64,000 bases of DNA, taken from positions 413,568 through 477,567 of the forward strand of contig CAZLEV010000001.1 in the NCBI GenBank assembly GCA_964558645.1, in the 5' to 3' direction. The stretch's first letter is position 1, and each line of letters starts with the position of its first letter. The notes beneath the pieces were generated by a model. The model saw only the letters and a list, made by a program, of their open reading frames with translations. It did not search any database and was not told the DNA's origin. Positions 22,634 to 43,741 of this stretch are shown here, in pieces. Made by a program: the position numbers and the translations under genes. The DNA is from an uncultured archaeon (GTDB lineage: Archaea; Asgardarchaeota; Thorarchaeia; Thorarchaeales; Thorarchaeaceae).

Positions 22634-23641
22634 CTAGTCGAGATGAAGAGGCGACCTGCACTCTGGATGATCGAAAATCTTCTCGCTTTCATATTTGTTG
22701 CCGAGGAACTGATTAATCATGAGTGCTGCGTAGTTGCCAGTACCTGTTGCCATCGACACTTGCTGGGTGATTGGCCTGCAATCTCCTGCGGCCCAAACTC
22801 CCTCTACGTTTGTCTTTCCTCTGTGGTCTGTGACGATATTGCCTCTCTGGTCAACCTCAACGCCAATCTGTTGTGCCACTTCTGACCGTGGTTCGGCAAC
22901 AAAACCAACGAAGAAAACGTTACATCGAATCCTCTCTCCTGATTCCAGTGTGAGACTCTGAACCTTGCCAGGCCTTGGGAAAGATATCTCCTTGATCTTC
23001 CCTCTGAGCCACTCGTACGGCGAGTCGTCCAGCCGGGATAGGTCTTGCTGGTCGATCGGCATGTATGCATCTTCAGTCATCAAGATTCGAACATCCTTTG
23101 TGAATCGACTGAGTGAGTGGGCTACATGAAGTGCACTACCAACAGTTCCGGCGTTGACCACTAGTACATCCTTTCCCTTGCAGAGAGGCGCCTCGCAATC
23201 CGGACAGTAGTAGGCCGCATTGCCCACATTGGCAACCGGCAACCATTTCCTCCACATTCCATCCACCCTGGGATGTTTCCGAGCCGTGCCTGTTGCAAAG
23301 ATGAGCGTTTTGGCCTTGTACTCTGACTGATCAGAAGTCCTATAGCTTCTATCTGTCTGCACAACGAATTCGGGATACTTGCCCTTGACTTCAGCGACAT
23401 TGCCCTCTTTGAACTCTGCCCCAGATGACTTGGCCACTCCCTGCAATTGCCGGAGGAGAGTCCTTCCCTCATAGTATGTCGGGCCAGCGGGGAAGTTCAT
23501 GATTGTATTAGTGTGATAATGCATCGGGCTTGTTCCACGGTCCAAGACCAAGACAGAACGATGATGATAGGCCAGATGAAGTGCGCCAGCAGCTCCTGCT
23601 GGTCCTCCGCCAACGATGATGGTGTCGTAGAAATCAGTCAT
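22634..23641 (-). CDS. Thioredoxin-reductase-like FAD/NAD(P) oxidoreductase
   Basis: GGGPAG, ATG, YCPDCE, GVWAAGD. Confidence 0.85.
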   Translation of the reverse strand: MTDFYDTIIVGGGPAGAAGALHLAYHHRSVLVLDRGTSPMHYHTNTIMNFPAGPTYYEGRTLLRQLQGVAKSSGAEFKEGNVAEVKGKYPEFVVQTDRSYRTSDQSEYKAKTLIFATGTARKHPRVDGMWRKWLPVANVGNAAYYCPDCEAPLCKGKDVLVVNAGTVGSALHVAHSLSRFTKDVRILMTEDAYMPIDQQDLSRLDDSPYEWLRGKIKEISFPRPGKVQSLTLESGERIRCNVFFVGFVAEPRSEVAQQIGVEVDQRGNIVTDHRGKTNVEGVWAAGDCRPITQQVSMATGTGNYAALMINQFLGNKYESEKIFDHPECRSPLHLD

Positions 23642-23728
23642 GAGCTAATACCCGTTATAGGTGTCACTGCCTCCGTCTTAAAACTCTATGCGAGCTTCAA
23701 AAAGAGAACGAAGGTTGTGATTGCAGCT

Positions 23729-24361
23729 CTAGCCCAAACATTCTCCTCCAGCATCTCGGCCAAGGTCAAATGCTTTGGAATTGGCATGGCGGGTCTTGGG
23801 AGGGACGAGGTCAAGTACTGCCTTCCTTACGCTCTCGGTATCAATCGGGAAATCCCTGCAGCTGCAGACCGCCCCAATCAAGACTGAATTCTCCGTCCTC
23901 GGATTGCCCGCCTCTTCTGCGAGGGCGAGCGAGTCCAGCATCACAATGCTCTGGGTCACCTTACGGAGTTTCTCTTCTATGTTTTCAACGGTAAGATACT
24001 TCGTGCTCCTTTCTTTGTCGAGTGCCACCATTTCGGTCTCACCGGGTGGGGGCATGATGCGATTGCTCATGATGATGACCCCGTCGTCCTTCAAATACTC
24101 TATGTAGCGGAGCGCCTCTGTGGCTTCCATGGCTATCATCATATCAGCAGTGCCGTAAGGGATGAGGGGAGATATCGGCTTGCCCATTCTGAAATGGACG
24201 TAGATTGAACCTTGCCTCTGTGACAGGCCATGCTGTTCTCCTGTGACCACTCCTATGCCGGCATCTACTGCAGCCTTACCCAGGATGGATGACAAAAGCA
24301 TCAGGCCTTGTCCACCAACTCCAGCAAAGATGATGTCAAAGCCATCTTTGATTTTGCTCAC
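23729..24361 (-). CDS. iorB: Indolepyruvate:ferredoxin oxidoreductase beta subunit
   Basis: AGVGGQG, EQHGLSQRQGS; coupled to iorA. Confidence 0.9.
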   Translation of the reverse strand: MSKIKDGFDIIFAGVGGQGLMLLSSILGKAAVDAGIGVVTGEQHGLSQRQGSIYVHFRMGKPISPLIPYGTADMMIAMEATEALRYIEYLKDDGVIIMSNRIMPPPGETEMVALDKERSTKYLTVENIEEKLRKVTQSIVMLDSLALAEEAGNPRTENSVLIGAVCSCRDFPIDTESVRKAVLDLVPPKTRHANSKAFDLGRDAGGECLG

Positions 24362-26259
24362 CTCTTCACCTCCATCTGATGCGGTGCATCTACGGGACAC
24401 ACCTGTCTACATTCAAGGCAGCCGTCACACAGGTCTTGTTGTATTATCATCTTCCCGTCTGACTCGTCAACAAGAATTGCTGGACAGTAAAACTCCTTGA
24501 CGCAGGCGTAGATTCCTCGACAGGTTTCTTTATCGTTCTCGCTAGGAATGATGCTCTGTCCCTGCTGTTTCTTGAGCCGATCTCCGTAGAGCGCACAGGC
24601 TCGCCTTGAGATTATCACGTTGAACCCATCTGCTTCTATCGCATCCTTGATTGGGTTGATGCAGTCACGGGTTTCATAGGGATCAATCACGGTGACGGAA
24701 TCTGCACCCATGGCCTCGAGCATCTTCTCCATGTCAATCTTCCTGGCAGGATGTCCTCCTGCGTCTTTCGGACTGTTTGGGTTGAACTGCTGCCCCGTCA
24801 TGGCCGTCACTGCATTGTCGAGCACAAACAGTGTGACATTTGCATTGTGATGGATGAGGTTGATGATGCCTGGGAGCGCAGCGTGATAGAGCGTGCTGTC
24901 TCCAACCATAGCGATAATATGGTCCTCCAGTGTCATCTCCATCCCCGCAGATATGCCAACAGAGGCACCCATCGCAAGCATCGAGTCGCTGAACCTATTG
25001 GGTGCCAGGAATGCCATGCTGTAACAGCCTATGTCATTGTTGAAGACAATCCTGTTTCGTATCTTCAATCGGTCGAGGGCCTGTCGAAATGCCCATAGCG
25101 TCCCGCGGTGAGGGCACCCCGGACAGAAGATGGGGTGTCGTTCAGGTAGGATCTCTTTCAGTCCATTGGCCCGTTTCAGGACAGAATCGTAGTCAAGGCT
25201 CAGGTCTTTTCCTGTGACTTCGGCAAGAACCTTCTCAACGATGGGAACGTTATACTCCAGCATTTCACTGAAGTGGCCGCTTCGTTTTCCGATGATCCTG
25301 AGAGAAGGATTTACGTCTTTAGTAATTGCTGCAATGCGCCTCTCAAGATAGGGTGTCAGTTCTTCGACTACAATGAGAACCTTGAGTGTCTTCAGATACT
25401 TTGCAATCCTACTCTCTGGGAGGGGGAACAGCGTGCCGATCTTCATCACAGGAAGATGCAGACCGAGGTTGCGGAGCGCTTCCTTGGTGTGGAGATATGA
25501 AACACCTGCGGTGAGTATTCCTATGTTGCCTTCACCTGGGTCAATGTGGTTGTGAATACTGCCCTCGAACTCCTCTCTCAGAGATTCGCGCTTCTCAAGT
25601 AGTTTTCTCTTCAAAGCACGAGCCACAGCACCAACAGTGAAATACTGGTCCTCTACGTCCGTCCATTGCCTTTTCTTGAACTCGGTTCTATTGAGCTCAC
25701 CCAGCTGTACCATACCTCGTTGGTGATTCACACGAGTAGTTGTACGGATAATGACCAGGGTCTTGTGACGTTCCGATATGTCAAAGGCCCATTTTACCAT
25801 TTCCAGAGATTCCTGAGGTGTGGCTGGCTCGAGCATCGGGACATAAGCCGCCTCACCGAAGTACCGCCCATCTTGTTCTGACTGAGAGGAGTGGGCATGG
25901 GGGTCATCGGCCATGACTGCAACACACCCTCCATTCAACCCGGTATACGCCGTTGAGAACATTGAGTCACTTGCGACGTTCATTCCCACGCTCTTCATGG
26001 AAGTAAATGAACGGAAGCCGGCCATCGAGGCGCCGGCTACTGTTTCAAGAGCTACTTTCTCGTTGACAGCAATCTGCATCCGATAGTCGCCAAAATGATC
26101 CAGCAGCTCGCTGAATGTGTCCAAGATTTCTGATGTTGGACTGCCCGGGTAAGCCGCAACCACTTTCACATCTGATTCAAGTGCGCCTCTGACTATGGCC
26201 TCATTTGTGAGCATCAGTGCTCTGCCATGATCTGTCCGCTTCACATCTTCTATGGTCAA
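24358..26259 (-). CDS. iorA: Indolepyruvate:ferredoxin oxidoreductase alpha subunit
   Basis: YPGSPTSEI, NEKVALE, SQSEQD, FCPGCPHR, DIGCY, TPP motif GDST..H, C-terminal ferredoxin CDGCLECRQVCP. Confidence 0.92.
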   Translation of the reverse strand: MTIEDVKRTDHGRALMLTNEAIVRGALESDVKVVAAYPGSPTSEILDTFSELLDHFGDYRMQIAVNEKVALETVAGASMAGFRSFTSMKSVGMNVASDSMFSTAYTGLNGGCVAVMADDPHAHSSQSEQDGRYFGEAAYVPMLEPATPQESLEMVKWAFDISERHKTLVIIRTTTRVNHQRGMVQLGELNRTEFKKRQWTDVEDQYFTVGAVARALKRKLLEKRESLREEFEGSIHNHIDPGEGNIGILTAGVSYLHTKEALRNLGLHLPVMKIGTLFPLPESRIAKYLKTLKVLIVVEELTPYLERRIAAITKDVNPSLRIIGKRSGHFSEMLEYNVPIVEKVLAEVTGKDLSLDYDSVLKRANGLKEILPERHPIFCPGCPHRGTLWAFRQALDRLKIRNRIVFNNDIGCYSMAFLAPNRFSDSMLAMGASVGISAGMEMTLEDHIIAMVGDSTLYHAALPGIINLIHHNANVTLFVLDNAVTAMTGQQFNPNSPKDAGGHPARKIDMEKMLEAMGADSVTVIDPYETRDCINPIKDAIEADGFNVIISRRACALYGDRLKKQQGQSIIPSENDKETCRGIYACVKEFYCPAILVDESDGKMIIQQDLCDGCLECRQVCPVDAPHQMEVKR

Positions 26260-26489
26260 TCTATATTCCCTCAGCAACGGCAGTTTCGATATTTCACTCG
26301 GCCTTCTGTCCCTGTTCAGATAAGCATTCGCTTGACCCACAGATGTCCACCGGTAGTACACAGGAACTATTCTTTTAAGAACTGAGAAAATGTCTGCTGA
26401 TACACGCTATCAGTAAGGCCAACAGTGGGGCATCCTAGTAGGCCATGTCCTGCAATAGCGTGCTTGAACCATCGGAAGTGACCAGAGTG

Positions 26490-26774
26490 ATGCTTGTATT
26501 CTCATGTCCGGAGTGTAAAGGGAAGGCCTCGATGGATATTACTGAAGAAGAGGTTGCAGATGTGAAAGCCCGGATAGCCCAGGATGGTCGATCTCCCACA
26601 GTGATTGTCAAGTGTGAGAACGGGCACGATTTGTTGGTGACACTCTATAATATGGGGGATGGACTTGGGGTTCGTGACGTAGTTGTGGCCATGACGAAGG
26701 CCGAGGTTTCAGGCAACAAGACAGAGGTTTCAGAGATTGACTGGTTGAAGAGGGCCTTCGGGGGTGAGCGATGA
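26490..26774 (+). CDS. Small putative zinc-binding protein
   Basis: CPEC...CENGH ligands; ATGA overlap with the next gene. Confidence 0.65.
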   Translation: MLVFSCPECKGKASMDITEEEVADVKARIAQDGRSPTVIVKCENGHDLLVTLYNMGDGLGVRDVVVAMTKAEVSGNKTEVSEIDWLKRAFGGER

Positions 26775-27148
26775 TGGTCATTCATCTTGTTGCTCGTGTC
26801 AATCTAGAGAACCTTGACACTCAAGTTATCTATCCGCGAGATCAAAAGGAAGAAGAGCGGATTGCACTTCTGACTGGAATCGTCCAGCTTGTTTCAACTG
26901 CTCTTGAACGGTCGGGTACCCCATCCGCCAAGGGACAACCCATGTTCATGAAATCCGAGAAGGGAGTTATAGGTTACTGCGTTGTGAAAGAGGATCTATT
27001 CATCTGTCAGGGTGATGCTGAACGGGAAACGGGTGACGCACTCAAGATGCTGGCGAACACGCCAAAGGCATCTGACGAGGAATTGTCCGGTAGTATCGCT
27101 GACCTGGTGTCTAAGCGCGGAAAGGAAATCGGAGATCTTTGGAGGTAG
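26771..27148 (+). CDS. Longin/roadblock-like small alpha/beta protein
   Basis: 125 aa with a beta-beta-alpha-beta-beta-beta-alpha-alpha pattern; in an operon with a GTPase. Confidence 0.5.
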   Translation: MMVIHLVARVNLENLDTQVIYPRDQKEEERIALLTGIVQLVSTALERSGTPSAKGQPMFMKSEKGVIGYCVVKEDLFICQGDAERETGDALKMLANTPKASDEELSGSIADLVSKRGKEIGDLWR

Positions 27149-27153
27149 AAAGA

Positions 27154-28563
27154 ATGGATTTCAGGCTAGCTTTTATTGTTGGCGGCGCTATTGCAACATT
27201 CATTCTAATCATCTCTCTGATACTATTTGCCCGGGCATACATGCGACTCAGGGACCGTCTGTCCTCTCCAGTGAAAAGATCGCTTCTTCTCATGGGTGCG
27301 GCAGGTTCTATGATCGTCTTGGTGGGGTTCACTGCAGCGATAGCAGTCATCCTGATCGATATCTGGCTTGTTATCTTCGCCTCTCTTATAATCAACTCAG
27401 AGGTTAGCCTGCTGAGTGATGATGCCGACACTCGTTTCATTGGAACGGTTTCGTCTGTAGTTGTCATGTTTCTTGTTGTGTTGTTGAAATTCGCAGTACC
27501 CGAAGTGGGAGCCTTACTGGCTGGTCCGCTATTGGTGGGAATGTTTGGTGTAGCTTTTCTGCTTGGCGTTAAGCTGATTCTCACCTCTCCGTCACCGTTC
27601 AGTATTTCGCTGATTGTTCTCTTACTCGCAACAATCTCGACCTATGTATTGGCATCAACAGGTATTCTCGGAATTGCTCCTGAATACTTTATTATAATCA
27701 TAATCCCCGTCGTTGTTCCAGCTGCCATTTTTGCTGGGATGTCCCGCCCATGGCGTTACATGGTTGTATTATCAATAGTGTTTCTGGCCCTATCCGTAGG
27801 CATGTCATTGACTATTGTTTCATATCTCTCAAATGAACCCCAGATATATGGATATGTTCTTGCAGCTGCTGCAGCAGCGCTTGCAGCGCTATACCCTCTG
27901 AATTACTTCTTGGAACAAGCTTCTATCACCGGTGCAAGAACGCCGGCATTCATTGCTGCTACCCAAGTGGCAATATGCCTCCTAGTTATCACTCACAGCA
28001 ATGCGTGGGCCATAGCTTGGAACCACGCCGTAGCTCAGGGGCTGACAATTGCAGACAATGTCTGGGATGTGCATTTCCTGTTTGTTGACTGGGTTCTTGG
28101 AGTTGCAGGCGTTTCGTGTCTCCTGCTCGCTGCGATTTCGACGAGTGCCAGCGAGAAGGCCATTTCTACGACCATAGATTCTCTGACATTCATCGGCTTT
28201 GTCTTGATTGTTCTCGGTCATCCGTTTGTACGGGGAGACAAGTACGAGCTCGCCCTTCTCTATATGCCTTTGGCCGTATTGATTGTGATTGCCACTGGAG
28301 CATTCGTAAGAGTGGCGGCCCGGATGAAGAAGACAGGATCCACTTCAGCAGCAGCTCGCTTTATCATGTTTATCTTCGCTTCTCTGGGTGCTGGGTTGGC
28401 TGCGATGTTTTCAGACATGATGTGGATGATGTGGCCACCTCTGGTCCTGTCCATCATGGTTGCAGTAGCATTAATGCTGCTAGCAAGCAGCCCGAGCGGT
28501 TTCAGGACTCTGACTCGACTCAAGAGTCCGACCATTCCGTTAGCAGGAGAGGATAACGCATAA
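27154..28563 (+). CDS. Multipass membrane protein (paralogue A)
   Basis: About a dozen or more hydrophobic segments; shares motifs with the next gene. Confidence 0.85.
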   Translation: MDFRLAFIVGGAIATFILIISLILFARAYMRLRDRLSSPVKRSLLLMGAAGSMIVLVGFTAAIAVILIDIWLVIFASLIINSEVSLLSDDADTRFIGTVSSVVVMFLVVLLKFAVPEVGALLAGPLLVGMFGVAFLLGVKLILTSPSPFSISLIVLLLATISTYVLASTGILGIAPEYFIIIIIPVVVPAAIFAGMSRPWRYMVVLSIVFLALSVGMSLTIVSYLSNEPQIYGYVLAAAAAALAALYPLNYFLEQASITGARTPAFIAATQVAICLLVITHSNAWAIAWNHAVAQGLTIADNVWDVHFLFVDWVLGVAGVSCLLLAAISTSASEKAISTTIDSLTFIGFVLIVLGHPFVRGDKYELALLYMPLAVLIVIATGAFVRVAARMKKTGSTSAAARFIMFIFASLGAGLAAMFSDMMWMMWPPLVLSIMVAVALMLLASSPSGFRTLTRLKSPTIPLAGEDNA

Positions 28564-29945
28564 TGGATTTCACCTTGGCAGTGCAAATTGGATCCGTAGT
28601 CACAGCCGGCATTCTTGTTTTCTCAGCTGCTGAGTTCGGAAGATCAATCTACCGTATTCGTGGTGATGTGGCCTCCTCAACCTTCAGGGCACTTGTCTTC
28701 TTCGGAGCCGCTTCGCTTACACTTGGCCTAATAGTGATCAATACGACCTTCGTGGCCGGTACCATTGGACAACGAACGTGGATTGCATTGTTCTTGGTAT
28801 TCATCATAGTGTCAGAGGTGCACGTTGCCACCGATAGTAAAAGGGCACATCGGGGCATCTATCTAGTTGCCGTATTCGCACTTGTTGCAGCGGCATTGGT
28901 CGCCATGCAGAGTCCAACTGAAGTTTCGCCAGTTCTGGCCACCGCTCTGACCATCGCGGTTACAACTGCAGTCTTGCTTGGCGCATGGTTGACGTATGAT
29001 TCTCCTTCGCCTTTCACCGTGGGTCTGCTTCTCCTTCTCGGTGCTTTTCTTGCGTCTTGGTCGATAATTACGCAGGGGGTCTTTGCCCAAGAGATTGACT
29101 TGAGTTCTTTCAATCTCTTTCTGATTCTGTTCCTGCCTGGGATGGTGGCCTCGTCCATCATGATCTCGATGCTGAAGCCCTGGCGACGAATCCTCACCTA
29201 CTTCATAATCTTCACTTCGGTCATGACAGCTGCTTCAATCGGACTTGCTGCACTTCTCACTCATTCGGCGGCGGTCGACCTTCAGATTGCAATCTTTGTA
29301 TTCGCAACGTGCATAATAGTGGCAGCTTCGACTGGTTCAGTCGACTTCTTCCTCGAGCAATCTGCTGAAACCAAAGCACGCATCCCCCTTTACATGGCGC
29401 TTACGCTTGTTTCAATTGCTGGGTTGCTCATATTGCATATGTTGTTCTATCCGATGTTCCTGCTGACAGGTATCAGCGAGGATCCTTTGCTCTCGTATAC
29501 TCAATGGATTCTCGGCATGACTGGGACTGCAGCCTTTGTTATCGGAGGATTCTACTCTGTTATCAGCAAGAGGGCTGTTAACTACTTGCGGCGAGGGCTG
29601 CTGGTATTCGTCGCCGTGATGGTGGTTCTAGCCAATCCTGTAATTCGCTTGGATTCTCTTGGACTCGCATATCGATGGGTGTACAATGACCTCTTCCCAT
29701 ACCTCATCGGCGTAATCTTAGTGGGTGTGGTCGGTTACATGCTAGTAGTCAGGCGGTTGCGTCGAGTGGGCTCTCAACGGGCAGCACGAAACTTCATGTC
29801 CTTTGCATTCTCTGCGTTGGCCACTGCGGCTGCCGTATTCTTCTCTGACGACCTTCCGTACCTCGTTGTTCTAGCTCTGATTGTTATACTTGGCAGCCTG
29901 ATGTTGTCAAGCAGTCCGAGAAGAGTCGTTGGAGATACAAGGTAA
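28563..29945 (+). CDS. Multipass membrane protein (paralogue B)
   Basis: TAATG overlap with paralogue A; shared SPSPF, PWR, FLEQ, FSD and SSP motifs. Confidence 0.85.
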   Translation: MDFTLAVQIGSVVTAGILVFSAAEFGRSIYRIRGDVASSTFRALVFFGAASLTLGLIVINTTFVAGTIGQRTWIALFLVFIIVSEVHVATDSKRAHRGIYLVAVFALVAAALVAMQSPTEVSPVLATALTIAVTTAVLLGAWLTYDSPSPFTVGLLLLLGAFLASWSIITQGVFAQEIDLSSFNLFLILFLPGMVASSIMISMLKPWRRILTYFIIFTSVMTAASIGLAALLTHSAAVDLQIAIFVFATCIIVAASTGSVDFFLEQSAETKARIPLYMALTLVSIAGLLILHMLFYPMFLLTGISEDPLLSYTQWILGMTGTAAFVIGGFYSVISKRAVNYLRRGLLVFVAVMVVLANPVIRLDSLGLAYRWVYNDLFPYLIGVILVGVVGYMLVVRRLRRVGSQRAARNFMSFAFSALATAAAVFFSDDLPYLVVLALIVILGSLMLSSSPRRVVGDTR

Positions 29946-30001
29946 GATTTAATGATACTACTGGGTAGGCAAGGTGCGGACAGAAGTACCGAGGTGCACA
30001 G

Positions 30002-30544
30002 ATGGCCATAATAAAAGCAGTAGTACTAGGGGAGACCGAAGTCGGGAAGACTTCGTTCACTGCCCGCTGGACAACTGGCAGTTTTCCGGACCCAAGCTCG
30101 CTGAAGACCACTGTTGGTGCAAGCTTCGACACGAAGCGTGTGGATCTACCCAGTGGCATGACAGTGACCCTGAGCCTTTGGGACTTCGGGGGACAATTGC
30201 GCTTCATTGAAGCACTGAAAGGGATGATTCGTGGAACTAAGATAGGCGCCTTCTTCTTTGACGTCTCCAAGATGGCCACTCTGGATGCAATCTTCGGCTA
30301 TTGGATTCCGACAGTAGAGCAGAATAGCACGCTCAGCTTCTCAGACGGTGCGGGTGAACGCTTCGTTCTCGTGGGAAACAAGATTGACCTTCTGGATGCT
30401 CCATTTAATCAAGTCCAAGATGAGATGGATCGCCTTGCGGAGCCATACGGGATGAAAACCCAGCTTATATCCGCGAAGACTGGAATCGGCATCGAGAGTC
30501 TTGATTACAAGTTCCTTGAGATCATAAGCAGGTTTGCCGAGTGA
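30002..30544 (+). CDS. Ras/Rab-like small GTPase
   Basis: G1 GETEVGKT, G2 TTVG, G3 WDFGGQ, G4 NKID, G5 SAK; no CAAX. Confidence 0.92.
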   Translation: MAIIKAVVLGETEVGKTSFTARWTTGSFPDPSSLKTTVGASFDTKRVDLPSGMTVTLSLWDFGGQLRFIEALKGMIRGTKIGAFFFDVSKMATLDAIFGYWIPTVEQNSTLSFSDGAGERFVLVGNKIDLLDAPFNQVQDEMDRLAEPYGMKTQLISAKTGIGIESLDYKFLEIISRFAE

Positions 30545-30608: not shown

Positions 30609-32453
30609 TCACTTCGCAGTACGCAAGAAGACGCTAACACTGAGACCTTTCTCTTGATGCCCATCAATGCGGTCCTCCAGCTCAATACGGCCGCCATATT
30701 TCCGGACAATCCGTCGAACGAGGTGCAGACCAACACCAGCTGAGCGTCTCGAGAGCCTGAAGAGGTGCTGTTTCTCTTTGTCACTCATGCCTGGTCCATT
30801 GTCACTGAATCTGAGCTCGAAGAAATCACCGTGGTCTTCTCCATATATCCAGACTTTCTTGTCATCACCAGGATTATGTTTGATGCTGTTCTCCATTAGA
30901 TTCCAGAAGAGATGCCCAAGAGCACTATCAGCCATCACCCTCACGTTGTCTGGAAGACCCGAGATCTCTGGTGTTACGTTGTACTGGCTTGCGAACAGAC
31001 GTGCTTGGGAAAGCAGCAGGCTTGCTACATCTGTTGGATGCAACGGTTCGCTCTTGAACCTCTCTGCCCGTCTGATATTGTCAATGAGTTCAAGGCACCT
31101 ACTGGCTCCGTCCAAAACATACTGCCGCGCATTCTTAATCTGATTACTTCTGGAGTCATCGTCAAGCAGGTCAGCGCCCGCCACAATCAGCTGCAGCTGG
31201 TTCCCTATATCATGGAGCAAGAGATCTAGCAGGAACTTCACCTCAGCCTCGGCATTCTTGAGTTCAGATACATCTGTAAAGACTGCAAAATTGCCCTGAT
31301 ACTCTCCGTCCGGTCCGAACACAGGTGACGCATGAACAATTGCCGGGATTATGTGCCCATCTTGGTGCAGCAGTTCGATTTCGTAATGATCCGCCTCTCC
31401 CTTCCTGCGTTCCCGGATCTTTTCTTCGACTTCTTTATCTGTCCATCCATAGGTCCACTTGGTTATGGATTTACCGATCAGGTCTTCTGGCGAGCTGTAG
31501 CCCAGCATTTCGCATAGCGCGTCATTGACGAGGAGCGTCTTCCCCCTATCATCATCAATACAGAAGCCGGAGTCCATGGTTTCAAGGAGCCTGCGGTATC
31601 TCTGTTCGCTCTCTTGCAATGCCCTGTGTGCTTCTTTCTGTTCGGTAATGTCTTGAATCTGTGCGACGGTCTTCACAGAGTCTTCTCCTGTCACCATGAC
31701 AGCACTGCTGATAACTACATCTCGGGGCGTTCCGTCACTTCTAAGAATCTTGAACTCGTATACGCGAGGTACTTCTTCTCCCCTTTGCCGTTTCACGTAT
31801 CTCTCCGCTACCAAATCAATGCTATCCGGATGAAGGAACTCTCGAAAGTCGTGCCCGAGGACTTCGCTACGAGTGAGTCCCAGCATATCAAGTAGTTTGT
31901 CGTTAACATACTCGAACTGATAGTTGTCGTTGACCACGAAGATACCAGCAAAGCTTGAGTATTCTATGATGAACTGGAAGATACCCTCCCTCTCTTGGAA
32001 TTTCTCTTCAATCGCCAACCGCCGAGTCAAATCAAGAACATAGACCACAAAACCAACCGGATTTCCCTCCTCAAATACCAACTCAGCCCAGGTTTCTGTG
32101 AGAATCTCAGCGCCATCTTTGCGATTGACCTTGAGAGTGATTGGTGTGGGCTCTGCCCCATCAAGGAGAGCCTTCAGACCTCTCTCCACTAAACCCTTCT
32201 CTTCTGACGAAACCATGCTCGTGGCATTGATCCCATGTTGGAGATCAGAATCGTCAATACAGAGAAGTCTTCTGGCGTTCTTGTTGGCATACATGATTCT
32301 GTAATCGAGGTCCAGCTCCACTATTGGAAGCAGAATATCTTCAACTGTATTTCTGAAGAGTGTTCTGTTGGTCTGTTCAGTACCTTCCGATTTTGCTTGC
32401 CGGTTCATTTGCTCTTGCCAACTTGAAGGGGGTTCTTGCCACCACTTGCACAT
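30609..32453 (-). CDS. Multi-PAS sensor histidine kinase
   Basis: Three PAS/PAC repeats, H-box LLHDIGN, NLMENSIKH, DNGPG, GVGL; the true start may be 32408. Confidence 0.9.
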   Translation of the reverse strand: MCKWWQEPPSSWQEQMNRQAKSEGTEQTNRTLFRNTVEDILLPIVELDLDYRIMYANKNARRLLCIDDSDLQHGINATSMVSSEEKGLVERGLKALLDGAEPTPITLKVNRKDGAEILTETWAELVFEEGNPVGFVVYVLDLTRRLAIEEKFQEREGIFQFIIEYSSFAGIFVVNDNYQFEYVNDKLLDMLGLTRSEVLGHDFREFLHPDSIDLVAERYVKRQRGEEVPRVYEFKILRSDGTPRDVVISSAVMVTGEDSVKTVAQIQDITEQKEAHRALQESEQRYRRLLETMDSGFCIDDDRGKTLLVNDALCEMLGYSSPEDLIGKSITKWTYGWTDKEVEEKIRERRKGEADHYEIELLHQDGHIIPAIVHASPVFGPDGEYQGNFAVFTDVSELKNAEAEVKFLLDLLLHDIGNQLQLIVAGADLLDDDSRSNQIKNARQYVLDGASRCLELIDNIRRAERFKSEPLHPTDVASLLLSQARLFASQYNVTPEISGLPDNVRVMADSALGHLFWNLMENSIKHNPGDDKKVWIYGEDHGDFFELRFSDNGPGMSDKEKQHLFRLSRRSAGVGLHLVRRIVRKYGGRIELEDRIDGHQEKGLSVSVFLRTAK

Positions 32454-32699: not shown

Positions 32700-33176
32700 C
32701 TAGCCACCCGGACTGCCTTTCCAAGGAGTATCTTTCCACATGATGTCCCATAGCATATCTTCAGTCAGTGTTTCGGGCTCTACTATCATTTTATGAAGGT
32801 CTTTGAGCAATGCGTGATGTCGCAGCTCGTCTTCTCTGATGGTTAGGGCAATTGTCTTGACTTGTTTGTTATCGCTGCCGTCTGCGAGTTGCTTGTAGGT
32901 GTCTATTGCATGCTGCTCCAGTTCTATGTGCTTCTCAATACCTCTCTTGATCTCATCTCTTTCGCCGGTGCTGATGAAAGGTGTAGGGCCTTTCACTGCT
33001 GTCCTGAGAGATTTCAGTAATGCGGCATGTTTTTTCGAGTCTTGTGATATTGCAAGCAGCATATCCTTTACGAAATCATTGCCCAGTTTCGCTGTATTCT
33101 TTTCGATGATCTCGATAATCCTATTCTCAAGCTCAATCTGTTTGTCAATGAATTCCAGCGTTTGTTCCTTGTTCAT
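32700..33176 (-). CDS. Ferritin-like domain protein
   Basis: IELE...DSKKH / IELE...DELRHH duplicated motifs. Confidence 0.75.
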   Translation of the reverse strand: MNKEQTLEFIDKQIELENRIIEIIEKNTAKLGNDFVKDMLLAISQDSKKHAALLKSLRTAVKGPTPFISTGERDEIKRGIEKHIELEQHAIDTYKQLADGSDNKQVKTIALTIREDELRHHALLKDLHKMIVEPETLTEDMLWDIMWKDTPWKGSPGG

Positions 33177-33495: not shown

Positions 33496-33747
33496 GTGTC
33501 CAGCGTGGCAAAAGTAACTCTCTATATGGCTCCCGAATGTCCTCATTCGGCCCAGGTCAAGTCGTTCCTTGAAGAGGCCGGTCTCGAAGTTGAAGAGAAG
33601 TCTGTCCTCGATGGGGAACAGATTCTCGAAGAGATGATTGATGTCAGTGGTCAGAAGGCCATTCCTGTCACCGTCATCGGCGGAGATGTATTCGTGGGAT
33701 TTGATAGGCGAATAGAAAGGAGAATGAAGCGGAAAATGGAGGAATGA
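33496..33747 (+). CDS. Glutaredoxin-like (NrdH/YruB-type) protein
   Basis: CPHS motif, SGQKAIP, VGFD. Confidence 0.8.
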   Translation: MSSVAKVTLYMAPECPHSAQVKSFLEEAGLEVEEKSVLDGEQILEEMIDVSGQKAIPVTVIGGDVFVGFDRRIERRMKRKMEE

Positions 33748-33750
33748 GTT

Positions 33751-34686
33751 ATGTATGATGTGGCTGTGATTGGTTCAGGTGTGACCGGCTATGCTGCTGC
33801 CATGTATGCTGCTCGCCTTGACATGAGTGTCGTCGTTATAGGTGATGTTGAGGGGGGCACCATAACTGAAACCAACGAGGTTGCTAACTACCCTGGTTTC
33901 GTCATGCTGACGGGAACAGAACTCGCAGATAAACTCAAAGAACACGCCCTTGATTACCCGGTCGATCTCGAGACCGGCAATGTCACCGATGTGTTCCGTT
34001 GTGAACAGGATTGTTTCTATGTCGTGACAGATAAGAAGACATTCTTGGCGAAGTCCCTGATATTCGCGACAGGCATGCGGGAGCGAGAGCTTGAGGTTCC
34101 GGGACATGACGAGTTACGTAACCGCGGCGTGAGTTATTGCGCTCTATGTGATGCTCCGCTCTTCAAAGATAAGACAGTGGCAGTTGTGGGGGGAAGCGAC
34201 GCAGCTGCAAAGGAGGCTTTGCTACTTGCGAAGTATTGCCCAAAGGTCTATCTCATTTATAGAGGCAAGAAGATACGTCCTGAGCCAATCAACGCCGAGC
34301 GAGTCGAGAAAGATAGTCGAATAGAGGTCATCACCGAAACCAATGTCACTGAGATTGTGGGGGAGAACCGAGTCAAAGCCGTGAAGCTGGACCGTCCTCA
34401 CAATGGGTCGACCACTCTTCCAGTGGACGGGGTCTTCATCGCTATCGGCGGTATCCCTCGTTCTGATTTGGCAAAGAAACTGGGGGTTGAAACGAATGAG
34501 AAAGGTGAGATTATCATTGATAGAAGTAGTCGTACGAACATCGACGGCGTGTTTGCGGCTGGAGATGTTGTCAACACCGAGTTCAAGCAGGCCATAACGG
34601 GGGTTGGTGAAGGTGTCCATGCTGCATACCAGGCCTATAGGTATGTCAATGAACGCGATTTCGTGTTCACATGGCAACAAGAGTAG
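33751..34686 (+). CDS. trxB: Thioredoxin-disulfide reductase
   Basis: GVSYCALCD, VVGGSDAA, GVFAAGDV, KQAIT. Confidence 0.9.
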   Translation: MYDVAVIGSGVTGYAAAMYAARLDMSVVVIGDVEGGTITETNEVANYPGFVMLTGTELADKLKEHALDYPVDLETGNVTDVFRCEQDCFYVVTDKKTFLAKSLIFATGMRERELEVPGHDELRNRGVSYCALCDAPLFKDKTVAVVGGSDAAAKEALLLAKYCPKVYLIYRGKKIRPEPINAERVEKDSRIEVITETNVTEIVGENRVKAVKLDRPHNGSTTLPVDGVFIAIGGIPRSDLAKKLGVETNEKGEIIIDRSSRTNIDGVFAAGDVVNTEFKQAITGVGEGVHAAYQAYRYVNERDFVFTWQQE

Positions 34687-40248: not shown

Positions 40249-40821
40249 ATGGTGATCAGAGTCGTGTCTGTTCCAGCTTACAAGCTACTACTAGTGGGCG
40301 ATGCCAATGTGGGAAAGTCATCGTTGATCCGTCGGCTTCTTCTGGAGGATTTTGACCCTGACTACACCGCAACTGTAGGTGTTGACCTGAGTGCTGTGGC
40401 ACTGAATGTGGACGGAAAGACTCCAGTTATCATGACCATGATCGATTTAGGGGGCCAGTCCGATTTCACGGACCTCAGGACGCAATACTACAAGGGAGCT
40501 CATGGTGCCGCACTTGTCTATGACCTATCCTGTCGTGATTCGTTTGAGAATCTAGAGACATGGCATGTGGAACTGAAGGAACACATCGAAGAGCCAAACG
40601 GGGTGTCGCTTCAGGGTGTCGTGATTGGTAATAAGATTGACAAGGCAGGTTCAAGAGAGGTGCCGCGAATCGAAGGCAGGTCCTTTGCAGAGAGTATTGG
40701 TTGGCCATTTCATGAGACCAGTGCCAAGTCGGGTGAGAATGTTGAGGATGTCTTTGCGGCGCTTGCAAAGAGAATGTACGTATCCCATCCCCCTCTGAAG
40801 ACCCGAGCTGACCACGCCTGA
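40249..40821 (+). CDS. Rab-like small GTPase
   Basis: GDANVGKS, TVGVD, DLGGQ, YYKGA, NKID, ETSAK. Confidence 0.93.
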   Translation: MVIRVVSVPAYKLLLVGDANVGKSSLIRRLLLEDFDPDYTATVGVDLSAVALNVDGKTPVIMTMIDLGGQSDFTDLRTQYYKGAHGAALVYDLSCRDSFENLETWHVELKEHIEEPNGVSLQGVVIGNKIDKAGSREVPRIEGRSFAESIGWPFHETSAKSGENVEDVFAALAKRMYVSHPPLKTRADHA

Positions 40822-40899
40822 CCCGCGTTAACCATTCCATTTTATAGTAGTTATCACCTTTCCAACCATCCTATCTTTAGTCTGAAAATGAGAGGTTGA

Positions 40900-42333
40900 T
40901 TGGTAATGCTTGAACTGCTTCAGGATTCAGTCCAGAAGGGAGAAGTCCTAGGTGCTGATTTCGTAGAATCTCGGTATGAGGATTTGACACTGCGGACTCT
41001 GCAGCGAAGTGACGATACGTGGAAGGACATTCAAGTGAAATCACGTATGGGTTTCGGTATTACATGCTATGTGGATGGCGTTTCGGGGTTCTCATTCACA
41101 CCCAGTCCGGATAAGAGCGACGTGTTTACTGCTACTGAACGAGCCTACAAGATGGCCAAGGCCTCAACAAGCGCAGCGAGTCTTAAGCTGCCTTTTGAAG
41201 GACGACCAGCTGTGACTAGTAAGGCATCCGACTCGGTCAGGCCCAAGGTTCATCCGAGTGACGAAGGTATCGGATTCAAGACCGACCTAGTGAGTAGATG
41301 CGTTGATGAGGCTCGGAAATATGGAGAGAACGTCCGGAATATCCGAGGGCTCTACGGTGAGCTTTACGGCAAGAAGATGCTCGTGAATAGCGACGGATCT
41401 GAAATTGACTGGGACTTCTTGGTCGCCGATCTGAGGATAACCGTGACTTCGCGGACTGAAAGTGGAGCCATGGTGATGGGCCATGAGGGCCATGGTGGAA
41501 GTTGGGGGCTCGAGGAGTATGGGACGAAGGGTCATATGCCGGAGGATTTAGGGCGGGAAGCAGGGGAGCGAGCTACCGAGCAGTTGAAGGCCAAGGCCTG
41601 CCCCGCAGGGAAGTTCAGAGCACTCTGCGAAGAGCGGCTAGTTGGTGTCCTTGCTCATGAGTCGTTTGGCCACCTGAGTGAGGGGGACTTCGTAGTGATG
41701 GGAGCTTCGCCCCTCACAAATAAACTGGACACCCCTCTTGGTACAGAGCACGCAACAATCATCGATGGTGGTGTACCTGACATTGAGGAGTACGGAGGCC
41801 TCTGGGTTCCTTTTGACGATCAAGGAACACCCTGTAGCCTGACTACTGTGTTAGACAAGGGTGTGCTCAAGCACTACCTGCATAACCGAGGGACAGCTCA
41901 GAAACTAAGACAGCAACCCACAGGTAATGCTAGAGCGGTCAATTTCACTTTTCCACCGATTCCGAGGATGACTAACACCTACGTTGCTCCGGGCGACTTG
42001 AGCGATGATGAAGCGCTTGAGCTATTGGACACGGGCGTCTATGCCATCCAGACATCTGGTGGCCAAGTCACGGGTGATGGCAGTTTTCTGTTCAAGGCTA
42101 TACGAGGCTATTGGGTCGAAAACGCCGAAATCCAGTATCCTATCCGTGAAGTTTCACTTTCTGGTAACATCCTTGAGCTTCTCGGAAATGTTGTGGGAGC
42201 GACCGACCAGCTGAGATTGTTCAGCGGGTACTTTGGGGGGTGCGGGAAAGGAGATCAATTCCCGCTGCCGACCGGTCTTGGAGGACCGAAAGTTGTCATT
42301 GACGATGTCACATTTGGAGGACAGTCTGATTAG
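40900..42333 (+). CDS. tldD: TldD-family metalloprotease
   Basis: HESFGHLSEGD, FDDQG, TGNAR, PRMTNT, GCGK. Confidence 0.9.
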   Translation: MVMLELLQDSVQKGEVLGADFVESRYEDLTLRTLQRSDDTWKDIQVKSRMGFGITCYVDGVSGFSFTPSPDKSDVFTATERAYKMAKASTSAASLKLPFEGRPAVTSKASDSVRPKVHPSDEGIGFKTDLVSRCVDEARKYGENVRNIRGLYGELYGKKMLVNSDGSEIDWDFLVADLRITVTSRTESGAMVMGHEGHGGSWGLEEYGTKGHMPEDLGREAGERATEQLKAKACPAGKFRALCEERLVGVLAHESFGHLSEGDFVVMGASPLTNKLDTPLGTEHATIIDGGVPDIEEYGGLWVPFDDQGTPCSLTTVLDKGVLKHYLHNRGTAQKLRQQPTGNARAVNFTFPPIPRMTNTYVAPGDLSDDEALELLDTGVYAIQTSGGQVTGDGSFLFKAIRGYWVENAEIQYPIREVSLSGNILELLGNVVGATDQLRLFSGYFGGCGKGDQFPLPTGLGGPKVVIDDVTFGGQSD

Positions 42334-42346
42334 GAGGTTCTTGAGG

Positions 42347-43741
42347 ATGGAATACGATTCAATAAAGGACGAGCTTATTGCGACAACGGACAGCGCTCTC
42401 AAGTATGCCAGGTCTCTTGATGCGGGTACAGAGTTTGAAGTGTTCGTTTACTTCAATAACTCTATGGAGGCTAAAATCGACCAGGGAATTGTTTCTGCAA
42501 AGGATGGAGCTATCGCCGGTAACACCGTGCGCGCAGCAATCGGAAACACAGTGGGCTTTGCCTGCGCAAGTGGTGTTTCTGCTGAGAGGGTGAAGCTGAG
42601 TGTCAAAGAGGCGCATAGCATTGCTTCGTCTATCAAGGTAGAAGATGACCGATTTGAAGGCTTCTGTGATCCAAATGAGCCTGGAAAGGAGGGAAAGTTC
42701 CATGAGCGAATTCTTGACCTTGGGACTGATGACTTGATCAAGGCAAGCGAATCCATGATTGAAGAGGCCAAGACTGCAGATGAGCGAGCCAAGGTCTTCA
42801 GTGCCTCTGCGTCAGCAAGCTATGGAGGATATGCGGTTGGCAATACTCGAGGTCTACTTGCTGCCACACGTTTTGGCGAGAACAGATGTATGGTGGATGT
42901 TCAAGCTATTCAAGGCGAGGAACGACGCAGTTCGTTCCGTTTTGACGTGGCGAGAGACCGACTCCTCGAGATAGAGAACCTGGGGAAAGAAGCTGCAGAA
43001 CAGGCAGTTGGTCTTCTGGGCGCGAAGAAGCTTGACTATACAGGGAAGATGACTACTATCTGGCGTCCCATACCAGCTGCGATGTACATCCAATCAAGCT
43101 TAGGTAGGTCGGTGCTTGGACAGCCTGTAGTCGAGGGTATCTCGCCGCTCAGTGACATGATTGGTGACACAGTTGCTCACGAGAGCCTTACCGTCGTTGA
43201 TGATGGTCAGAAACCCGAGTCTCTGGGAACGAATGCTATTGACTATGAGGGACACGGTCAGAAGAAGAACGTGATTGTCGATGGAGGCGTCCTGAAGGGG
43301 TTCCTGTTTGATAGCTACTGGGCTCGTGCCTTCGGGGTTGAATCAACCGGAAATTGTACTCGAGGTGGCGGTGAGTTTGGTGGAGCTACACCGTATGAAG
43401 ACTCTGTAGGTGTGACCGTCAAACATCTTACCATTTCTCCTGGAAGGCTTAGTCAAGAAGACATAATTGCTTCAATAGACGGAAGAGCATTGGTCATCGA
43501 CGGCTTCCCTCTCGGAATCTTTCATACGAGCGTCGCCACTGGCGAGTTCTCAGTTGTCGCCAACGCCGTGTATCTCATTGAGAATGGTGAGATGAAAGGA
43601 TCTGTTCAGCCAGTTTCAGTTTCGGGCGACTTCTATCGCGGATTCAAGAGCATCGCTCATGTTGGAAGTGATGTTGAAGTGGTGCCTTGGGCAATCGAGA
43701 ACCCGACCATAGCCTTCGATGACTTCACAGTTGTTGGCTGA
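42347..43741 (+). CDS. pmbA: PmbA/TldE-family protein
   Basis: Follows tldD; DYEG, STGN, TGEFS; lacks HExxxH. Confidence 0.85.
   Translation: MEYDSIKDELIATTDSALKYARSLDAGTEFEVFVYFNNSMEAKIDQGIVSAKDGAIAGNTVRAAIGNTVGFACASGVSAERVKLSVKEAHSIASSIKVEDDRFEGFCDPNEPGKEGKFHERILDLGTDDLIKASESMIEEAKTADERAKVFSASASASYGGYAVGNTRGLLAATRFGENRCMVDVQAIQGEERRSSFRFDVARDRLLEIENLGKEAAEQAVGLLGAKKLDYTGKMTTIWRPIPAAMYIQSSLGRSVLGQPVVEGISPLSDMIGDTVAHESLTVVDDGQKPESLGTNAIDYEGHGQKKNVIVDGGVLKGFLFDSYWARAFGVESTGNCTRGGGEFGGATPYEDSVGVTVKHLTISPGRLSQEDIIASIDGRALVIDGFPLGIFHTSVATGEFSVVANAVYLIENGEMKGSVQPVSVSGDFYRGFKSIAHVGSDVEVVPWAIENPTIAFDDFTVVG

Follow-up and report, generated by a model that had tools for sequence, protein, structure and literature searches.

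A conserved Thorarchaeota gene module that resembles a membrane receptor-to-G-protein switch

We analyzed a 64,000-nucleotide stretch of DNA from an uncultured archaeon of the Thorarchaeaceae (assembly GCA_964558645.1, contig CAZLEV010000001.1, positions 413,568 to 477,567), hereafter the window, in which five genes at positions 26490 to 30544 encode a zinc (Zn) ribbon protein, a small longin-fold protein, two related 15-helix membrane proteins (TM-A and TM-B) and a small GTPase. Our results indicate that these genes form a real, strongly conserved and lineage-restricted module, built of four uncharacterized or barely annotated families, which looks like an undescribed archaeal membrane receptor-to-G-protein switch. 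A sequence-only reading of the same DNA had proposed a heterodimeric membrane receptor or scaffold that recruits and switches a small GTPase, in a setting found across Asgard genomes. We narrow this proposal to a membrane-anchored small-GTPase switch specific to one Thorarchaeota family, a reading to which we give somewhat better than even chances.

All five genes lie on the forward strand. The Zn-ribbon gene occupies 26490..26774; an alternative ATG is present upstream at 26445, and homologues start at the position of 26490. Its end overlaps by ATGA the open reading frame (ORF) of the 125-residue longin-fold protein (26771..27148), which has no Pfam match and was recognized from its AlphaFold2 (AF2) fold. 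The TM-A gene ends at 28563 and begins either at an ATG (27154), leaving a gap of 5 nt after the longin gene, or at a TTG (27139), which would give a 10-nt overlap. TM-B (28563..29945) overlaps TM-A by 1 nt, and the GTPase gene (30002..30544) follows after 56 nt. ORFs and junctions thus bear out the initial description of five co-oriented genes that overlap or nearly abut. TM-A and TM-B were also described as a pair with common ordered motifs, and the two proteins align end to end at 27% identity (BLASTP, E 3e-34), so that the motifs reflect homology and not chance. None of the five proteins matched a PADLOC defence model at E ≤ 0.01, and an anti-phage defence system was rejected. Three DNA metagenome runs and no RNA run were listed as containing the stretch.

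The module survey covered the window, three metagenome contigs and 20 genome loci whose ORFs were scanned with hidden Markov models of the four families. The order Zn-ribbon, longin, membrane protein, GTPase was found in 27 of 27 complete modules, which represent at least 14 genera of one Thorarchaeota family and contain either one membrane protein (15 modules) or two (12 modules). Identical gene order was seen in 38 loci obtained independently from named Thorarchaeota metagenome-assembled genomes. Tandem modules are frequent, and on one metagenome contig a four-gene module is followed by a five-gene module. When TM-B relatives were sought in a word-indexed collection of 5.8 billion proteins, only three were recovered, each within an equivalent gene cluster. 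The GTPase, whose absence from beside these genes in relatives would have spoken against the sequence-only reading, is present in every complete module.

The distribution of the module is narrow. A profile of the longin protein was run against 400 genomes of the phylum and matched in 39 of the 85 genomes of the window's own family, with no credible match in the 315 Asgard genomes outside it; the neighbors of the module proteins in the ESM Atlas are Thorarchaeota clusters. The Asgard-wide setting envisaged earlier therefore did not hold, since the module is confined to one Thorarchaeota family. Within that family it is absent from 7 of 23 high-quality genomes, which indicates that it is not essential. 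Among 86 family genomes the longin gene was found in 40, the module GTPase in 39 and both in 36. In all four genomes with the longin gene alone, the locus is cut by contig ends.

The three genomes that have the GTPase alone belong to one genus and carry a reduced Zn-ribbon plus GTPase locus at the equivalent syntenic site, between the indolepyruvate:ferredoxin oxidoreductase genes (iorAB) and a thioredoxin-reductase-like gene (L105:6668-7643, L106:6559-7558 and L107:2476-3411). The GTPases of these loci are nested within the module GTPase clade, with moderate support, so that the reduced locus is most simply explained by secondary loss. As these two proteins alone persist there, the observation points to the Zn-ribbon protein as the closest partner of the GTPase. 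The Zn-ribbon protein itself carries CPxC...C...H ligands, and in the family alignment C/P/C...C...H, GRSPT, RD and W..FG are invariant. Against the zinc beta-ribbon domain of Brz (PF23454) the window protein scores 26.5 bits, just below the cut-off of 27.9, and 26 of 29 family members match this domain at E ≤ 0.01 (best E 5.9e-7); what was first called simply a Zn protein is thus probably a zinc ribbon of Brz type. The protein ends in a conserved tail, D-W-[LV]-x-x-A-F-G-G. In the reduced loci this D-W-x-x-x-A-F-G-G tail is lost, and a Lys/Arg-rich end is found instead, as would be predicted for a tail that contacts the longin or the membrane protein.

The GTPase matches Pfam Ras (PF00071) with 77.1 bits, for a cut-off of 21.6, and has the motifs GETEVGKT (G1), TT at 36-37 (G2), DFGGQ (G3), NKID (G4) and SAK (G5). 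Across 27 orthologues these elements (GxxxxGKT, TT, DxxGQ, NKxD, SAK) are invariant or nearly so, and the catalytic Gln of switch II is kept. No sign of a lipid anchor was found: the C-terminus reads ...ISRFAE, there is no C-terminal Cys in 27 of 27 orthologues, and Gly2 is missing at the N-terminus. Intact G1-G5 and the lack of an anchor, both noted on first inspection, are thus borne out. Since there is no lipid anchor, recruitment of the GTPase to the membrane would need a protein partner. The nearest solved sequence relatives, on which its Rab-likeness rests, are Rabs (E 7e-15), including a Thorarchaeota Rab, 7ezb (3e-14).

The assembly (3.6 Mb) contains 28 Ras-family matches, among which the module GTPase stands apart: its profile gives 316 bits on the window gene versus 87 bits on the best other paralogue in the genome. 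In a tree of 27 module GTPases and 15 Ras-like paralogues of the window genome, the module GTPases formed one clade with 100/100 support and a stem of 3.39, and split into three subclades, I to III. These data suggest that the protein is a divergent Rab/Ras-like small GTPase dedicated to the module. An additional feature is its P-loop (window 30029-30052), which reads G-[DE]-[TS]-E-x-G-K-T in all 27 orthologues: where Ras has Gly13 there is always Glu (Glu13), and where it has Gly12 there is Thr or Ser. This is unusual among Ras-like GTPases and may bear on the mechanism of GTPase-activating proteins (GAPs).

The GTPase subclades are mirrored in the trees of the other module proteins. When GTPase subclade labels were placed on the longin tree, two changes were required, which is the minimum, compared with a mean of 12.9 for shuffled labels; on the membrane-protein tree three changes were required, again the minimum, compared with 21.8. 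Tandem modules of a single genome sit in different subclades in all three trees, so that the congruence goes beyond species phylogeny and whole modules must have diverged as units. The genes could be mere neighbors in a slowly rearranging region, with no common function, and the flanking iorAB and thioredoxin-reductase-like genes are indeed also syntenic across the family. However, the genes share nucleotides at their start and stop codons, loss or retention affects the four families jointly, tandem duplication has copied modules as units, with congruent paralogue trees within single genomes, and all four families are confined to one and the same taxon. We regard the explanation by mere proximity as hardly tenable.

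The window module belongs to clade II, and its TM-A to the lineage T1. One old duplication in clade II gave rise to the T1 and T2 membrane lineages, and all 11 modules of this clade retain both; in one clade III module the membrane protein has been duplicated independently of this and more recently. On these trees, the pair is a derived, clade-specific state and not a defining feature of the module, single-receptor modules being commoner. The earlier idea of a heterodimeric receptor or scaffold is thus retained in part: the paralogous pair is real, but it does not define the module, as 15 of 27 modules have one membrane protein. That T1 and T2 were kept throughout clade II would be compatible with heteromer formation or with divided tasks. 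We also observed a tandem pair of closely related clade III modules at L053:7019-9074 (and at L079:3622-5701) whose upstream member lacks a GTPase of its own but contains the genes for the Zn-ribbon, longin and membrane proteins. The next module lies directly downstream, which suggests that one GTPase may serve two receptors.

The longin protein of the window matched no Pfam family at E ≤ 1, and no NCBIfam or PDB sequence. Its AF2 model, built on a 29-sequence alignment (pLDDT 86.2), contains the elements E4-11, E17-21, H28-47, E58-62, E65-72, E75-81, H84-96 and H102-124. This order, strand-strand-helix-strand-strand-strand-helix-helix with a five-stranded sheet, is the longin topology. In the family, R30, K61 and E84 are nearly invariant. 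An exhaustive VIA-align search gave matches over the full length to solved longin domains: DENND1A in complex with Rab35 (Z 9.9, 113 residues aligned), CPLANE (Z 9.6), VAMP7 (Z 9.6), Mon1-Ccz1 with Ypt7 (Z 9.5), TRAPP (Z 9.2) and the Lokiarchaeota longin 8yqg (Z 8.7). The model also matches the SRX domain of the signal recognition particle (SRP) receptor and small subunits of coat and adaptor complexes; roadblock proteins align over residues 1-100 only. Foldseek E values were no better than 2e-3, yet every row was a roadblock or longin protein. Shape search of the ESM Atlas returned Sybindin/Sedlin and COPI zeta (TM-score 0.70), as well as a Thorarchaeota GTPase fused to a similar domain.

The longin fold is therefore well supported as a model, and family membership by sequence is not: among the 29 members, two gave a weak match to Robl_LC7 (E 0.077) and one to Intu_longin_1 (E 0.12). 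The suggestion that the 125-residue protein is longin- or roadblock-like was upheld by the topology, at pLDDT 86, and by the matches to longin domains of Rab guanine nucleotide exchange factors (GEFs). A search for longer relatives found no fused forms, which is weak evidence. Regulators of Rab, Rag and MglA are known to use longin and roadblock domains as platforms (PMC3747258), and the modelled fold makes the protein a candidate regulator of the GTPase, as a GEF or GAP platform.

The AF2 model of TM-B (74 sequences; pLDDT 90.3, pTM 0.90) has 15 long helices, arranged as two seven-transmembrane-helix (7TM) bundles, one at residues 1-209 and the other at approximately 235-460, with a linker helix (208-232) between them. 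Across the alignment, Lys plus Arg residues number 15.4 per sequence in predicted inside loops and 3.5 in outside loops, and by this positive-inside count the N-terminus of each bundle lies outside and the C-terminus inside. Of the 26 positions with at least 80% conservation, about 17 are at cytoplasmic helix ends or in cytoplasmic loops, where the motifs SPSPF, PWR, FLEQ..T.AR.P and R-x-G-x-x-x-AA are found. The membrane protein has a buried, nearly invariant His292, and further polar positions are conserved as well. TM-B has no Lys in helix 7 (180-201) or helix 15 (433-450), nor is there Lys among the positions conserved at 80% or more; because of the missing Lys in helices 7 and 15, the membrane proteins are not microbial rhodopsins. 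An internal duplication was considered and rejected, as hhalign of the N-terminal against the C-terminal half gave an out-of-register, non-significant alignment (probability 14-24%); the two bundles are alike in fold only.

Against 48,161 representative chains, VIA-align gave Z 15.0 for TM-B residues 1-209 (202 aligned, root-mean-square deviation 3.7) and Z 14.0 for residues 240-459 (216 aligned), values to be read with the caution that helical models can reach Z ~14 by architecture alone. The top 50 rows all had the 7TM fold of G-protein-coupled receptors (GPCRs): two are GPCR-like proteins designed de novo, and the others are receptors of class C, class A, class B, the adhesion type and the Frizzled type. 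Independently, ESM Atlas shape search returned clusters of eukaryotic GPCRs and the prokaryotic sensor modules HisKA_7TM and 7TMR-DISM_7TM, which are joined there to kinase and cyclase domains (TM-score 0.50-0.55). In a Foldseek search of the PDB nothing reached E ≤ 0.001 and the top row was LYCHOS (E 0.035), which VIA-align of Foldseek's list, otherwise in agreement, aligned through its GPCR domain only (Z ~12); GPCRs appeared as partial matches (probability 0.99). On the question of 7TM repeats or a transporter fold, which was raised at the outset, Foldseek thus returned 7TM bundles as partial matches and transporters at low probability. From these models, each membrane protein is best described as two seven-helix receptor-like bundles, N-terminus out and C-terminus in, joined by an eighth helix.

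The same data bear on the possibility that the 15-helix proteins are a new transporter or transceptor family, gated by or reporting to the GTPase in a coupling of the FeoB or SLC38A9 type. Fifteen helices are more typical of transporters, the buried His292 and other polar positions are conserved, major facilitator superfamily (MFS) and POT proteins occur in the Foldseek list at low probability, and the conserved neighbor iorAB degrades aromatic amino-acid derivatives. Nevertheless, no transporter family was found for TM-A or TM-B in Pfam, NCBIfam, the exhaustive profile search or the fold search, in agreement with the first impression that the pair bears no recognizable transporter signature. 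The profile search, made over 1.84 billion representatives, returned 55 proteins, all of the membrane-protein family itself and of similar length, and by profile the family appears to have no detectable link to any other. Furthermore, Foldseek's transporter rows are at TM-scores of 0.14-0.23, every entry among the 50 best VIA-align matches and the atlas shape matches is a 7TM receptor or sensor fold that covers one seven-helix half, and the halves show no in-register inverted or direct repeat of the kind usual in transporters. We consider a transporter quite unlikely.

Building on gene order, co-inheritance, co-divergence, predicted folds, topology and the location of conserved residues, we propose how the membrane-anchored switch could work. 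One or two 15-helix proteins would form a membrane-resident sensor or docking platform, with the conserved cytoplasmic loops as a surface for soluble partners. At that surface the longin protein, as a GEF or GAP platform, would set the nucleotide state of the anchor-less Rab-like GTPase, and the Brz-like Zn-ribbon protein would serve as co-regulator or effector of the GTPase. Mutual binding, GEF/GAP activity of the longin protein, signal sensing by the membrane protein and the nature of the output are thus what we infer. As a hypothesis, the original proposal of a receptor or scaffold that switches a GTPase is for the most part borne out by the longin fold, the 7TM-like bundles and the dedicated GTPase, with binding, GEF/GAP activity and any ligand as its putative parts. 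A complex prediction for the Zn-ribbon, longin and GTPase proteins, with the GTPase as the partner, scored 0.09 against a mark of 0.32, a result that speaks neither for nor against binding.

Several observations weigh against a receptor-like switch. In the reduced loci the GTPase persists without the membrane and longin proteins. Local synteny within the family is strong (38 loci), so that part of the conservation of gene order is plain vertical inheritance. No Pfam longin or roadblock model was matched significantly, and neither membrane protein gave a Pfam 7tm, 7TMR-DISM or HisKA_7TM match at E ≤ 1. The Z scores of the bundles, 14-15, fall within the range in which helical proteins match by common architecture. 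Finally, no extracellular ligand-binding domain could be recognized, and the outside loops are short and poorly conserved.

This last point is also compatible with a device for membrane recruitment or remodelling, in which the multipass protein would be a constitutive anchor or GEF platform for a GTPase that organizes membrane or envelope processes, as Sec12 is for Sar1 and SR-beta for the SRX longin domain of SR-alpha. Such a role would agree with a GTPase that has no lipid anchor, with the match of the longin model to the SRX domain and to coat and adaptor small subunits, and with a conserved cytoplasmic face opposite weakly conserved outside loops. On the other hand, no coat, SNARE, ESCRT or other trafficking genes occur in the conserved neighborhood, the existence of three paralogous types of module, all ancient and often found in tandem within one genome, agrees better with diversified inputs than with a single housekeeping anchor, and 7 of 23 high-quality family genomes do without the module. 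We therefore hold a recruitment device to be unlikely, and keep the sensing switch as our working model.

Upstream of the module and divergent from it, on the reverse strand, lie iorA and iorB (23729..26361; IOR_alpha 638 bits, IOR_beta 170-177 bits, NCBIfam), followed by a thioredoxin-reductase-like gene (22634-26361 together). The iorAB genes are divergent from the module in most of the 38 related loci and in the reduced loci. Thioredoxin-reductase-like genes flank the reduced loci and, in all three clades, the majority of module loci, and in the window a glutaredoxin and thioredoxin reductase pair is found downstream (33496-34686). Most related loci keep this frame around the module. The iorA ORF of the window is 667 residues long and exceeds its relatives (618-638), so that translation probably begins further inside the ORF, which would enlarge the shared intergenic region. 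The iorAB neighborhood may be plain synteny, and a functional link is putative. A more ambitious version of the switch can nevertheless be drawn, in which a GPCR-like double-7TM receptor acts through a longin GEF/GAP and the Rab-like GTPase on a Zn-ribbon regulator of iorAB, and hence of aromatic amino-acid fermentation. That the pathway ends at the iorAB promoter is allowed by the fact that Brz-type proteins regulate transcription in Halobacterium (PMC2253796). If true, it would be an Asgard counterpart of eukaryotic nutrient signalling from LYCHOS or SLC38A9 through GATOR/Ragulator to Rag; we rate it as very unlikely.

Other genes of the region were recorded as well. A cytoplasmic multi-PAS histidine kinase (30609-32453, reverse strand) is convergent with the GTPase gene; it was rejected as a partner of the module, as it adjoins mainly in close relatives and neither in L011 nor in most other loci. 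A rubrerythrin/ferritin-like protein of 158 residues (32700-33176, reverse strand) is conserved downstream in the relatives L014, L015 and L105, and together with the thioredoxin and glutaredoxin genes lends the region a redox flavor. Further away, in the 40249-43741 region, another GTPase gene of the window encodes a Rab/Ras-like protein of more typical kind (142.6 bits for Pfam Ras). After it, on the strand that it occupies, come the two genes of a TldD/PmbA metallopeptidase pair, at 40900-42333 and 42233-43741.

A full-text literature search found no description of the Thorarchaeota module. Asgard genomes encode dozens of small GTPases and longin or roadblock proteins. A structural study of Asgard GTPases reported that their genes do not, in general, share operons with those of roadblock or longin proteins, so that partners cannot be assigned (PMC10933270). 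In the present module, a single GTPase is genetically tied to a specific longin, a specific Zn-ribbon protein and a new receptor-like membrane family, and the three co-diverging paralogous versions of the module provide natural specificity controls. The system is small, defined and expressible, and suited to asking how an anchor-less archaeal Rab-like GTPase reaches the membrane and whether longin domains served as GEFs or GAPs already before eukaryotes arose. Should the receptor reading be correct, the module would represent a link from 7TM protein to G protein in the prokaryotes most closely related to eukaryotes; since it is confined to one Thorarchaeota family, an ancestral role for eukaryotic systems is not evident.

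Among eukaryotic systems, the Rab and Rag regulators (DENN, Mon1-Ccz1, TRAPP, Ragulator, GATOR1/FLCN) likewise combine a longin protein with a Rab-like GTPase, and the best structural matches of our longin protein are the longin domains of eukaryotic Rab GEFs. In the module, moreover, a multipass protein with a GPCR-like bundle is genetically coupled to the GTPase, which recalls membrane sensors such as LYCHOS/GPR155 and SLC38A9. However, there is no homology at the sequence level, the module has a single small longin protein instead of a hetero-oligomer and no DENN, TRAPP or Rag partner, and the resemblance to LYCHOS is limited to a generic 7TM bundle. Within Asgard archaea, an operon of a LAMTOR1-like roadblock protein, a Rab-like GTPase and a DENN protein is widespread (bioRxiv 10.1101/2020.10.19.343400). 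It too pairs a Rab-like GTPase with a member of the roadblock/longin superfamily. Neither a membrane protein nor a Zn ribbon belongs to it, whereas the core of the Thorarchaeota module is a new membrane-protein family found in one family only.

With the prokaryotic 7TM sensors 7TMR-DISM_7TM (PF07695) and HisKA_7TM (PF16927) and with GPCRs, which gave the best ESM Atlas and PDB shape matches, the membrane proteins have in common the seven-helix bundle with N-terminus out and C-terminus in. They differ in having two bundles per chain joined by an eighth helix, in lacking a Pfam match, and in an output that would be a separate GTPase and not a fused kinase or cyclase, nor a heterotrimeric G protein. 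Brz of Halobacterium salinarum is a zinc finger protein encoded beside the gene of a 7TM protein, bacteriorhodopsin, which it regulates (PMC2253796). The Zn-ribbon protein of the module is similarly a small archaeal protein with a probable zinc beta-ribbon domain of PF23454 type, but it has the D-W-x-x-x-A-F-G-G tail, and a GTPase accompanies it in every case.

The nearest known system, in both logic and gene content, is the actinobacterial conservon (CvnA-D of Streptomyces), in which a sensor kinase of the membrane is combined with an MglB/roadblock protein, a small GTPase and an accessory protein, and which occurs as several paralogous operons (PMC13343842, PMC13621833, PMC4316618). The components nevertheless differ throughout: the Thorarchaeota sensor is double 7TM-like with no histidine-kinase or HATPase domain, the platform shows longin topology instead of that of MglB/roadblock, a Brz-like Zn ribbon takes the place of CvnC as accessory protein, the GTPase has the Gln of switch II and is of Rab/Ras-like and not of MglA-like type, and the host is an Asgard archaeon. 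Pfam and NCBIfam showed no HATPase, Robl_LC7 or MglA-type signature in the five window proteins, and as none of the conservon's defining families is present, we conclude that the module is an analogue of the conservon and not a member of it. The likeness lies in the design: in both, a four-gene operon encodes a sensor, a protein of the roadblock/longin superfamily, an accessory protein and a Ras-superfamily GTPase, and is present in multiple paralogous copies per genome.

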